From Piedraia hortae CBS 480.64 (taxonomy: Eukaryota): a DNA stretch of 64,000 nt. The notes below the pieces were generated by a model. That model saw only the letters and a list, made by a program, of their open reading frames with translations, was not told the origin of the DNA and did no database searches. The translations under genes were made by a program, and so were the position numbers. This document shows, piece after piece, positions 3,239 through 8,189 of the stretch. The stretch's first letter is position 1. Each line of letters starts with the position of its first letter. The stretch is taken from NCBI GenBank assembly GCA_010093745.1, contig MU005959.1, forward strand, positions 1 to 64,000. Direction: 5' to 3'.

Positions 3239-5298
3239 ATGACTAAGCTCATCTTCCTTACTGCCCTCCTCACCTCGGCCGCGCTGGCGCGTCCTTGCGG
3301 CTCTATTCCGTGAGTAGCACCCGGCAATTAATTCCCAAGTAGATCTAACAAGGGAAAGCAACTCGGTCGCACCGTCCGCTGCCGGAGCTGCTCCCTCTGC
3401 TGGTCAGGGTTGCGGCGGATGCGGTGGCGCTGGCTGCCCTAGCTGCGGCGGCAACTCTGTCGGCTCGCAAAAGTGCGGTTCGTGCGGCGGTGCTGGATGC
3501 CCCAACTGCCCCGGTGGCAACTGCGCCGGCTGTGGCGGCGCTGGCTGCCCTAGCTGCTCTGGCGGCATGGTCAAGCGCACGATCAAGCGCAACGTCGCCT
3601 TCAAGAACAACTGCGGTGGATCTGGCTGCGGTAGCGCTGGCTGCCCAAGCTGCGGCGGTAACTCCTCTTGCGGCTCATGCGGCGGTGCTGGCTGTGGCAA
3701 CTGCGGTGGCATGAAGAAGCGCACTGTCAAGCGCTGCGGCTCGTGCGGCGGTGCCGGCTGCCCCAACTGCGCCGGCGGAAACTGCGCTGGCTGTGGCGGC
3801 GCTGGATGCCCTAGCTGCTCTGGATCTACCGGCGCTCAGAAGTGNNNNNNNNNNNNNNNNNNNNNNNNNNNNNNNNNNNNNNNNNNNNNNNNNNNNNNNN
3901 NNNNNNNNNNNNNNNNNNNNNNNNNNNNNNNNNNNNNNNNNNNNNNNNNNNNNNNNNNNNNNNNNNNNNNNNNNNNNNNNNNNNNNNNNNNNNNNNNNNN
4001 NNNNNNNNNNNNNNNNNNNNNNNNNNNNNNNNNNNNNNNNNNNNNNNNNNNNNNNNNNNNNNNNNNNNNNNNNNNNNNNNNNNNNNNNNNNNNNNNNNNN
4101 NNNNNNNNNNNNNNNNNNNNNNNNNNNNNNNNNNNNNNNNNNNNNNNNNNNNNNNNNNNNNNNNNNNNNNNNNNNNNNNNNNNNNNNNNNNNNNNNNNNN
4201 NNNNNNNNNNNNNNNNNNNNNNNNNNNNNNNNNNNNNNNNNNNNNNNNNNNNNNNNNNNNNNNNNNNNNTCTACCGGCGCTCAGAAGTGCGGATCCTGCG
4301 GCGGCGCCGGTTGCCCCAACTGCCCGGGTGGCAACTGCGCTGGCTGCGGCGGCGCTGGTTGCCCAAGCTGCTCCGGCGGAATGAAGAAGCGCACTGTCAA
4401 GCGCTGCGGCTCGTGCGGCGGTGCCGGCTGCCCCAACTGCCCCGGCGGAAACTGTGCAGGCTGTGGTGGTGCAGGTTGCCCCGGCTGCTCCGGCTCTGCT
4501 CCCTCATCAAGCGTCACTGGCTCTCAGAAGTGTGGCTCGTGCGGCGGCGCCGGTTGCCCCAACTGCCCAGGTGGCAACTGTGCTGGCTGCGGCGGTGCTG
4601 GCTGCCCCAGCTGCTCCGGTGGCATGAAGAAGCGATGTGGTTCCTGCGGCGGTGCCGGCTGCCCCAACTGCCCCGGCGGAAACTGTGCAGGCTGTGGTGG
4701 TGCCGGCTGCCCCGGCTGCTCCGGCTCTGCTCCCTCGTCCAGCGTCATGGGCTCCCAGAAGTGCGGTGGCTGCGGTGGCTCCGGCTGCCCTAGCTGCGGC
4801 GGCAACTCCTCTTGCGGATCCTGTGGCGGTGCCGGTTGCCCAAGCTGCGGTGGTATGGTCAAGCGCACAGTCAAGCGATGCGGCGGTGCTGGCTGCGGTG
4901 GCTGCGCCGACTGCCCCGGTGGCAACTGCGGTTCTTGCGGCGGCGCCGGCTGCCCTAGCTGCTCAGGCTCCACTGCCGCTCAGAAGTGTGGCTCGTGCGG
5001 CGGTGCCGGTTGCCCCAACTGCCCAGGTGGCAACTGTGCTGGCTGCGGCGGTGCTGGCTGCCCCAGCTGCTCCGGTGGCATGAAGAAACGATGTGGGTCC
5101 TGCGGCGGTGCCGGTTGCCCCAACTGCCCGGGTGGTAACTGCGCTGGCTGTGGCGGCGCTGGATGCCCTAGCTGCTCTGGATCTACCGGCGCTCAGAAGT
5201 GCGGATCCTGCGGCGGTGCCGGTTGCCCCAACTGCCCAGGTGGTAACTGTGCTGGCTGCGGTGGTGCCGGCTGCCCCGGATGCTCCGGCTCGGCATAA
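3239..5298 (+). CDS. Secreted Cys/Gly-rich repeat polyprotein with Kex2-type KR sites (KEP-like; metallothionein- or CxxCxGxG-like modules)
   Basis: ATG 3239 gives the signal-peptide-like [17 protein letters not shown]. Intron 3310-3358 (GTGAGT..CTAAC..AAG) joins exon 1 in frame to the repeats [28 protein letters not shown]. Linkers are KKR, KKRTVKR or VKRT[IV]KR. Stop TAA 5296-5298. The N gap hides part of the gene. Confidence 0.85.
3845..4269. other. Assembly gap (425 N) within the repeat gene
   Basis: Run of N, flanked by an identical 20-mer at 3825-3844 and 4270-4289. Confidence 0.99.
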
Positions 5299-5777: not shown

Positions 5778-7430
5778 CTACTCTCCCCTCCTCGACCTCA
5801 AATTCGCCTCAATTGTCTGAATCATCCTATTCCCAATCTGGCTTGCCTCAGGGAACCTCGGCGCGAAATATCGTTGGATACGTTCAAACTTCTCCTTGTA
5901 CGCCTCAAAGTGTCCAAGACTAACACATTCACTCCAATCACGGGCTGCAAAGGTAAATTCCAAATCATCCGCACGGAAAGTATTATCCGTTAACGCAGTT
6001 TCGATCGCCTCGTTGAGGAGGGAGGGGTTGCGGTAGAGGTATCTATTTCTTAGCTGGGTTGGGGTTTTTTTTGGTGGGGAGAGGGAAGTCTTACTCTGTA
6101 ATTCCTAGCCAGAGGCGGAAGAGGGGTGTGGAGCAGATGATGTGGTCGTATGGAACGATGTGTAGTTTCCACCAGCAGTCTACGATGGCGAGGATGCTTA
6201 GGTGGTTGTTTTTGAGACGTTCTTTGGGTTTTTCGCCGACGCTGAAGCGGTCTAAGACTTCGTCTTCGAGGAGAAGTTCCTGGTCTTTGCGGGTTTTGCC
6301 GAATACGGCATCCCGCGCGGTGTAGATTCGATCTGTAAGTTCCTTGCGATGGCCCCCGAGCATGAGTTTGAAGAGTTCGGTGACGGAATCGGCGTATTGG
6401 CGGATTTGTTGTCTGGCATTGGGGTTGAGGATGGCGAGACCGGCGTAGACGTGCCATTTATTGTTGTAAATGCGGAGGGTTATGTTCATTTTTACGTTTT
6501 CGATGCCGCCGACATAGCGGGGTTCTTCCCAGGGGAATTGTTTATTGGCACACCATGCTGTGCCCATGGAGAGGAAGGCGGCGTGTGTGACGGCTTGGGT
6601 GTCGGCTGTGATGCGGTCGTGCTCAGCGGCAGATAGTTGGACGATTTCGGAGTTCATGCAGGACAGGATGTTCTTTACGAGTTCGAGGGATTTATCGGGG
6701 GCTCGATGGGGGATGATGACCAAGGGCTGACCTTTGGGGTCAACGCCGGGCCCATGGAGAGAGTGACAGGATATAATCTCAACATCTCCAGGAAGGTGTT
6801 TCTCAAACGCAGTAATCTCAGGCGCCTTGGTAGACGTTTGTCCTCCAACAATAGCACCAAGCTTGGTAGAAGGCCCGTAGGTTTCTACAATCTTATCAAT
6901 ATTGCGAGCCTCGACAGAGTACATGATCCAATCAGAAGAGCGAGACACGTAATGACCATTGAATAAGATGGAAACATTGGACTGCCTACCTTCAGCGCTA
7001 ATCATTAAAGAGTAAGGATGCCTACGTTGTCGGCAAACTCGGTCTTGAGTGCCTCAAACTTTTCAGGGACATCACACGCATGGACTCTGAGTGAGTTAGC
7101 CTGCAACTTGTTAGCAAATTACACAACAGATAGTAAGATGTTGCAGATATCTCATCAGACAAGTAATTGATTAGGTAGCTGAGATTTAACATCAGTGACA
7201 GCAGCCGGTGAGCAGAAACATCAGGACGATGAGTCCGCGGCCCAGCTGCCATGCTCGAGCCAAATGCACTCAAGTCATCATTTGCAAGGAAATGCATTGT
7301 CCATACCTTACGGGAGCAATGGAAGCAAAACGTCGGCGACTGCCTACCTCCATCCAGCAGCGCTTATCCGACGGGCATACATCTTGCCCATATCACCCAT
7401 TCCGATGATGCCGACGACAGGACTGCCCAT
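5778..7430 (-). CDS. TYR1: Prephenate dehydrogenase
   Basis: Exons 7430-7348, 7086-7026, 6981-6095 and 6042-5778. N-terminal GIIGMGDMG Rossmann motif; GGQTSTKAPE, HSLHGP and HDRITADTQAVTHAAFLSMG motifs. Confidence 0.95.
7150..7286 (-). ncRNA. snR13: Box C/D snoRNA, snR13 homolog (guides 2'-O-methylation of 25S rRNA, A2280/A2281 in yeast numbering)
   Basis: Box C ATGATGA at 7281-7275 and box D CTGA at 7158-7155. TGAGTGCATTTGGCTCGAG follows box C; its GCATTTGGCT (7267-7258) is antisense to LSU AGCCAAAUGC. A second element GCTACCT (7179-7173) is antisense to the adjacent AGGUAGC. Both match my recollection of yeast snR13. End coordinates are approximate. Confidence 0.88.
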
Positions 7431-7585
7431 ATTGAATGTTGTGAGAGGCTGGTGTTGAAAAGGAGTGTGGTTATATGCGAAGCTTCAAAAAGCTCGGGCA
7501 AAATGTCGCGGAAGCACCCGCTCTTGGCGAGTGGGGCCTGGACTTCCCACCACAATTTCGTCCACTGCAAACACGCAACGCAGTC

Positions 7586-8189
<604 letters not shown>

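Follow-up and report, generated by a model that had tools for sequence, protein, structure and literature searches.

The DNA analysed here, referred to as the window, comprises the first 64,000 nucleotides (nt) of contig MU005959.1 of Piedraia hortae CBS 480.64 (GenBank assembly GCA_010093745.1), numbered on the forward strand. On its minus strand lies TYR1, the gene for prephenate dehydrogenase: the translation of its exon 3 is 100% identical to the P. hortae CBS 480.64 protein of that name. Our subject is intron 1 of this gene, which harbours a small nucleolar RNA (snoRNA) and carries two complete sets of splice signals, one inside the other. The elements of this part of the locus are listed below in the direction of transcription.

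7430..7348, minus strand: TYR1 exon 1, coding; ATG at 7430; encodes MGSPVVGIIGMGDMGKMYARRISAAGW plus 2 nt
7347..7087, minus strand: intron 1 in full, which is the outer intron in its DNA form, 261 nt, GT..AG, phase 2
7347-7342, minus strand: outer donor GTAGGC
7347..7307, minus strand: 5' segment of the outer intron, 41 nt
7306..7101, minus strand: inner intron, 206 nt, GTATGG ... GCTAAC ... CAG
7306-7301, minus strand: inner donor GTATGG, with AAG directly before it
7281..7155, minus strand: core of the snR13-like box C/D snoRNA, from ATGATGA (7281-7275) to CTGA (7158-7155)
7280-7275, minus strand: snoRNA box C
7272-7254, minus strand: snoRNA guide, 19 nt, equal to the RF01223 consensus throughout
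7158-7155, minus strand: snoRNA box D, CTGA
7115-7110, minus strand: inner branch element GCTAAC, branch A at 7111, starting 40 nt past box D
7103..7101, minus strand: inner acceptor CAG
7100..7087, minus strand: 3' segment of the outer intron, 14 nt
7100-7095, minus strand: outer branch element GCTAAC, branch A at 7096
7089-7087, minus strand: outer acceptor CAG
7086..7026, minus strand: TYR1 exon 2, which finishes the R codon and then encodes VHACDVPEKFEALKTEFADN
7025..6982, minus strand: TYR1 intron 2, 44 nt, GTAGGC .. GCTGAAG .. CAG
from 6981, minus strand: TYR1 exon 3, long

The outer donor GTAGGC, branch element GCTAAC and acceptor CAG are each contiguous in the DNA, and the inner intron stops at 7101, flush with the outer branch element. 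Excision of 7306-7101 leaves 41 + 14 nt, an ordinary 55-nt intron. That is, a complete U2 intron lies wholly inside another complete U2 intron, the arrangement known as a stwintron sensu lato or nested splicing. An earlier reading of this stretch (the original prediction below) had named the two donors and the two tandem branch/acceptor sets, and we located every one of them on the minus strand, which confirms the observation of nested signals. It had also placed the snoRNA wholly within the inner unit, as the span from box C (7280-7275) to box D (7158-7155) bears out, and the inner intron outside the outer core motifs. The latter is correct, and the element is therefore not a strict stwintron: neither the outer donor, nor the branch element, nor the acceptor is split by the inner intron. 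The 41-nt 5' segment contains no CTRAY branch element.

The reading frame agrees with this layout. Exon 1 ends at 7348 with ..GCT GCT GGA TGG AG, and joining 7348 to 7086 was predicted to give the in-frame ..AAGW-R-VHACD... The spliced N-terminus, ..GIIGMGDMGKMYARRISAAGW-R-VHACD.., does match those of annotated prephenate dehydrogenases from 20 or more relatives (alignment A1). Joining 7348 to 7100 instead adds 14 nt and shifts the frame, also as foreseen, and retention of the outer donor places an in-frame TAG right behind exon 1 (TGG AGG TAG). The deposited gene model P0001 (391 amino acids, window 6091-7007, minus strand) begins at an ATG within intron 2 (MISAEGRQ-SNVSIL..). Exons 1 and 2 are missing from it, and with them the GIIGMGDMG nucleotide-binding motif of the N-terminus, which is of the GxGxxG type that binds nicotinamide adenine dinucleotide. 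The models of many relatives are likewise broken at the AGW/R junction in alignment A1 (here and below a slash marks a joint); gene callers therefore stumble on intron 1.

We then turned to X1, the sole public sequencing run that contains this stretch; its RNA type is a guess rather than a matter of record. The assembled contigs of X1 were aligned to window 6700-7600, and word depths are means per contig. The contig joint 7086/7348, which skips all 261 nt and links exon 1 to exon 2, had a word depth of 199.5. A second joint, 7100/7307 (listed as 7099/7306, "cut +1"), skips 206 nt and had a word depth of 56.7; it reads CT..AC on the plus strand, which is GT..AG on the gene strand, and the inner branch element lies 9 nt upstream of its acceptor side. 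This joint is the intermediate ..CCCGTAAG/GCTAACTC.. that had been predicted, found beside the full junction. RNA from which only the inner intron is gone thus stands beside fully spliced RNA, which is the mark of nested splicing. The contig of the unspliced stretch 7073-7335 had a word depth of 43, and a contig at 7059-7102, over the unspliced outer acceptor, one of 97.5. As 97.5 is near 43 + 56.7, the depths behave as abundances of three forms. The X1 cover ends near 7443, just upstream of the ATG; X1 therefore behaves as complementary DNA made from RNA, not as DNA. The cross-pairings 7348/7100 (which had been proposed as a substrate of nonsense-mediated decay, NMD) and 7307/7086 were not among the X1 joints, where contigs cannot prove absence. 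Intron 2 was kept in a 1400-nt contig of X1, and no joint across it was listed; its retention leads to a stop after ..FADN VGILTL.

The cargo of the inner intron has the layout of snR13: an AUGAUGA box C, a guide identical to the consensus, and a box D near the 3' end. At the Rfam gathering level there was no match anywhere in the window. A permissive scan aligned just the 5' part to RF01223 (snR13), at 21.4 bits (E 0.34), which is below the gathering score of 47 for this family. Considering both the identical guide and the sub-threshold score, we use the label "snR13-like". No further Rfam match was found in the whole window at E<=5, so there is no second snoRNA intron for comparison. In mammals and yeast, intronic box C/D snoRNAs occur one per intron, with the branch point about 50 nt downstream. 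The 40 nt between box D and the inner branch element in the window correspond to the spacing of splicing-dependent intronic box C/D snoRNAs. Shortly before box D, the snoRNA has another stretch (7161-7185, minus strand, ..ATCTCAGCTACCT..) that is near-invariant across the snoRNA-bearing relatives, which suggests a second guide.

To see how far the arrangement extends, metagenome contigs were scanned with a TYR1 alignment. This gave 80 loci, in which exons 1 and 2 were located through ungapped matching of the window peptides. Both exons were present in 66 of the 80 loci, and 62 of these 66 had an intron at the same codon phase; the site had no intron in the other four. The intron measured 56 nt in two loci (L073 and L075) and 247-486 nt in 60, which represent 47 distinct sequences. 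With boundaries inferred from protein homology, GT..AG ends were found in all 63 introns (the 62 and the window). The snR13-type guide was present in all 48 distinct long introns (the 47 and the window).

The original prediction had called for conservation of the inner donor and the inner branch/acceptor set across orthologous TYR1 introns, and both recur. In the relatives, the inner donor is near-consensus, usually G/GTACGT or G/GTAAGT, and lies 33-51 nt upstream of box C; one of these two words stands at the homologous place in 23 of 32 representatives. An inner CTRAY branch element follows at +48 to +64 past box D and an AG at about +62 to +86, whereas the outer branch element lies 89-137 nt past box D, in a 3' flank that holds its own branch element and a terminal AG. 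Typically, the inner donor stands about 40 nt ahead of box C, and the inner branch element and acceptor about 52 and 68 nt past box D. A scripted test found tandem 3' branch/acceptor sets in 44 of the 48 distinct introns, and the tandem sets together with an inner donor score of at least 5 in 40. Reading by eye added L020-L023, which have GTTCGT, a word penalised by the scoring, at the expected inner-donor place, and L025, with the inner donor CAG/GTGAGC and a CTCAC branch element; this brings the nested introns to 45 of 48. The three exceptions (L029, L030 and L036, an unplaced Dothideomycete-like lineage that also lacks intron 2) carry the snoRNA in a simple intron, with a lone branch/acceptor set at +53 to +56 / +69 to +73. 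Eight partial loci that end within the intron showed the same tandem 3' sets and were excluded from the counts.

To take relatedness into account, introns that share 8-mers outside the snoRNA were grouped, which gave 36 clusters. An inner donor scoring at least 5.5 and lying 25-55 nt before box C was found in 31 of the 36 cluster representatives, whereas 500 trials with shuffled controls gave 1.8 on average and never more than 6. Together with the inner joint in the RNA-derived contigs, this places the pattern beyond chance. Among the 33 nested representatives, the inner intron measured 206-250 nt (median 236), the 5' flank 38-124 nt (median 50), the 3' flank 14-87 nt (median 51), and the remnant left by inner removal 55-175 nt (median 102). 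The inner length is therefore tightly held while both flanks vary, and the architecture recurs although the flanking intron sequence of the relatives is otherwise unalignable. The window lies at the minimum of the range for the inner intron (206), the 3' flank (14) and the remnant (55).

Averaged over 32 representatives, no donor of the gene is as strong as the inner one, whose mean score is 6.23 compared with 5.11 for the outer donor and 4.25 for that of intron 2; GTACGT accounts for 13 of these inner donors and GTAAGT for 10. The position of intron 2 is shared by most relatives, where this intron measures 43-73 nt, and its donor is weak in most of them too. Three further ideas about the outer intron were tried and rejected. 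A hairpin masking the outer donor gave a mean z of -0.27 over 46 of the 48 introns (two had segments shorter than 30 nt and were left out), with z < -2 in only four. Zipper-like pairing of the 5' segment with the 3' segment gave a mean z of +0.29 over the 33 representatives that remain when the three non-nested clusters are excluded, and none fell below -2. Selection of the outer donor for weakness is not borne out either, its mean of 5.11 being higher than the 4.25 of intron 2.

A second sighting of the state in which the inner intron is removed and the outer one kept comes from one of these loci, L026, a contig of 1460 nt that encodes a protein with 86% identity to one from a Pleosporales species. 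In L026 a single open frame runs from exon 2 through to the stop codon: it lacks introns 2 and 3, while intron 2 is present in its relatives L047, L071 and L080. Between exons 1 and 2 it keeps 63 nt that match the 5' plus 3' flanks of the Pleosporales-like relatives. The first 37 nt end in words found before the inner donor in L047 and L080, and a CTGAC branch element and a terminal AG lie within the remaining 26 nt. The retained 63 nt give an immediate in-frame stop (TGG AAG TGA). L026 is most simply read as a transcript-derived contig with the inner intron removed and the outer one kept; it might also be a genomic copy made from inner-spliced RNA.

Taking these results together, we consider it likely that TYR1 intron 1 consists of two nested U2-type introns, of which the inner snoRNA unit is cut first and the 55-nt remnant second; the nested reading is supported by the RNA junctions and by strong conservation. 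The inner unit 7306-7101 would be a self-sufficient snoRNA-delivery intron with its own donor, branch point and acceptor. In organisms whose introns are recognised across the intron, the first choice is expected to fall on the smallest complete unit. The spliceosome would recognise the inner unit first, as the smallest definable intron, and cut it out as one lariat, and the snR13-like snoRNA would be trimmed from this 206-nt lariat, its probable source. Once the inner unit is gone, the flanks of 41 and 14 nt would together form a conventional intron of 55 nt. A second reaction would then use the GTAGGC donor, the GCTAAC branch element and the CAG acceptor and yield the frame AGW-R-VHACD. RNA halted after the first reaction would carry the in-frame TAG right after exon 1. 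We infer that this inside-out route is a main productive one, with the splicing order as given and the inner-spliced RNA as precursor of the mRNA. Both signal sets may persist mainly because the arrangement is self-locking, the loss of one inner signal leaving the remaining sites to mis-pair and break the frame. Were the inner donor lost and the inner acceptor kept, the outer donor would pair with the inner acceptor, adding 14 nt and shifting the frame; were the inner acceptor lost and the inner donor kept, the inner donor would pair with the outer acceptor, adding 41 nt.

Several points weigh against this inside-out scheme. All three outer signals (donor, branch element and acceptor) are already intact while the inner intron is still in place, therefore nothing forces an order, and removal of the 261 nt in one step yields the identical mRNA. 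The RNA evidence from the window is a single run that is not on record as RNA, and its contigs carry no information on order, strand or absence. Moreover, the 1400-nt X1 contig is colinear through intron 2, which may mean that immature RNA is plentiful in the sample and that the intermediate is over-represented. As for L026, it could derive from the genome of a lineage in which three introns have been lost. In the window itself, the inner donor GTATGG scores 5, equal to the 5 of the outer donor, and the simple-intron hosts L029, L030 and L036 show that nesting is not needed for snoRNA production. A different division of labour has to be considered, in which the productive route is the one-step excision of 261 nt, and inner splicing is unproductive: its product would keep the 55 nt and the TAG and be degraded or detained, with the snoRNA still released. 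The intact outer signals in the DNA would allow this, the inner-spliced form is abundant rather than fleeting (56.7 vs 199.5), and in L026 it is otherwise fully spliced, as a stable end product would be. However, an inner donor and acceptor close to consensus, conserved in 31 or more of the 36 lineages, ill suit a wasteful by-product, unless that product is itself functional; what inner splicing leaves behind in each lineage is a short intron of the normal kind (55-175 nt); and inside-out completion has been demonstrated for similar introns of Lipomyces, as described in the available text of PMC7138796. On balance, we regard one-step excision as the productive route as unlikely.

The remaining accounts fare worse. 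If exon 1 were first joined at AAG/GTATGG (7307/7306), the site would act as a zero-length exon that regenerates a donor, that is, as recursive splicing. An AG does precede the inner donor in the window and in L001, L020, L021 and L032, but in most relatives it is preceded by ATG, TTG or CTG. The observed joint retains the 41-nt segment that recursion would remove first, and this segment has no CTRAY branch element; nor was a 7348/7306 joint listed in X1, whose contigs cannot prove absence. TYR1 intron 1 does not show the zero-length exon of recursive splicing, and we consider this route very improbable. Finally, the inner signals could be chance look-alikes, with the joint arising from noise, from a reverse-transcription jump at a 3-nt repeat or from a DNA deletion variant. 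Three letters (AG/G) do fit either side of the inner joint, and there is only one run to draw on. Against this, the ends of the joint are the canonical GT..AG, a branch element precedes it by 9 nt, it reaches roughly one quarter of the main joint's depth, and the same architecture is found in relatives whose flanking intron sequence is otherwise unalignable. Such an artefact is the least probable of the explanations, to the point of being hardly credible.

The nested design might also be a conserved valve by which the supply of snoRNA is uncoupled from that of the enzyme, a possibility that we put forward tentatively and with more doubt than confidence. The strong inner intron would release snR13 from each transcript; the share of translatable TYR1 mRNA would be set by the outer remnant, which is ordinary or weak, together with intron 2; and the remaining transcripts, with their immediate stop codon, would be detained or decay. 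The original prediction had proposed that snoRNA and TYR1 mRNA output may be coupled or uncoupled, for example through NMD of the alternative product. If the valve exists, the inner-spliced, outer-retained RNA is a regulated end product and not merely an intermediate.

Among known systems, the closest is a pair of nested U2 introns in a reticulon-like gene of Lipomyces, with the inner intron outside a core motif; according to the available text, inside-out excision was shown there experimentally, the smallest definable intron being spliced first (Ag et al. 2020, PMC7138796). Both cases have two canonical U2 introns nested at a conserved position, with the inner one outside a core motif, and in both an intermediate that lacks only the inner unit was found. 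They differ in that the Lipomyces inner unit, as described in that text, begins 0-1 nt behind the outer donor, has no gene cargo and is confined to one genus, whereas in TYR1 it begins 41 nt in, ends flush with the outer branch element and carries a snoRNA, and the nesting persists in many lineages, at protein identities as low as 59%. Stwintrons sensu stricto (types [D], [L] and [A]) are those in which a core motif of the outer intron, be it donor, branch element or acceptor, is interrupted by the inner one, and the order is described as obligatory (PMC8469720, PMC7138796, available text). The likeness to TYR1 intron 1 is that both are nested spliceosomal introns in Pezizomycotina, those being removed by consecutive reactions according to the same text; the difference is that the outer core motifs of TYR1 are unsplit. 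TYR1 intron 1 fits a stwintron sensu lato, the looser class of nested splicing or intrasplicing as it is set out in the parts available of PMC7138796, bioRxiv 10.1101/224170 and PMC4394429. In Cryptococcus neoformans, 13 cases of an "intron within an intron" were described; as far as the text available for that preprint goes, they were seen only on spliceosome-bound RNA and not on polyA RNA, with cargo and conservation unreported (bioRxiv 10.1101/224170).

Nested splicing and snoRNA introns also meet in the non-coding polycistronic snoRNA hosts of fungi, for which stepwise removal of nested or recursive introns is described in the available text of Luo et al. 2013 (PMC3596301) and Donovan et al. 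2016 (PMC5033589). In those hosts, as that text has it, the introns are juxtaposed or overlapping in a non-coding transcript, or an intron lies within snR51 itself, whereas TYR1 has a protein-coding frame to restore and its snoRNA intron lies inside another complete intron. snoRNA introns are further described, in the available text of PMC3596301, as moving to new sites. The cargo itself resembles snR13 of yeast, CD1, and U15 of animals and plants (RF01223, CL00045), in that its box C and 19-nt guide equal the snR13 consensus; it differs in that yeast snR13 is an independent gene and in the sub-threshold Rfam score of the window. Neurospora crassa CD1 is given as 125 nt long and intron-encoded in the article text of PMC2780460 and PMC3511168, which, supplements aside, does not name the host gene. 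The intron that carries CD1 is on chromosome III (PMC2780460). The text of the fungal snoRNAome paper contains no mention of snR13 or of a host gene. A literature search that left most subscription journals outside found no paper linking a snoRNA with prephenate dehydrogenase. Nor, with the supplements of PMC2780460 also outside, did we find a published protein-coding nested pair whose inner intron carries a snoRNA, or one so widely kept.

Nested splicing in fungi has so far been treated as rare, lineage-specific or fleeting. The TYR1 case concerns a housekeeping gene that codes for protein, has an identifiable cargo and appears to have been retained among moulds that are only very distantly related. 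It offers a natural system for how an intron-defining spliceosome orders overlapping introns and avoids four possible mis-pairings, and for how one transcript gives a snoRNA and its host mRNA in different amounts.

TYR1 and a gene resembling that of ribosomal protein S14 (RPS14) lie head-to-head in the window, with 157 bp between their ATGs (window 7430-7587). This pairing is also part of the valve reading, in which the two genes would be transcribed from the shared 157-bp region. Of the 53 loci with at least 900 nt upstream of exon 1, 47 have a divergent RPS14-like gene ahead of TYR1, the match in L030 being weak. The six without it (L065, L067, L068, L070, L073 and L075) are exactly those without the snoRNA. 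This co-occurrence could reflect shared ancestry or a functional link to the ribosomal-protein promoter.

Two of these six, L073 and L075, have the plain 56-nt intron at the same codon (about 2325-2380) and no RPS14 neighbour, and no snoRNA was found in the 56-nt intron or within 2.5 kb. The TYR1 protein with the 56-nt intron is 92% identical to that of Trichophaea hybrida and thus Pezizomycete-like. Pezizomycetes branch early in Pezizomycotina. A snoRNA-bearing intron may have been inserted into a short intron that was already old, or the Pezizomycete lineage may have lost the inner unit; both histories fit these observations. The emergence of new inner sites within one long intron ("stwintronisation" in the available text of PMC7138796) is a further possible origin. 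The best named relative of L036 is a Dothideomycete (79% identity), and this simple-intron lineage looks derived.

Elsewhere in the window, positions 3715-5298 on the plus strand hold a long open frame of Cys/Gly-rich repeats, which is broken by an assembly run of N.

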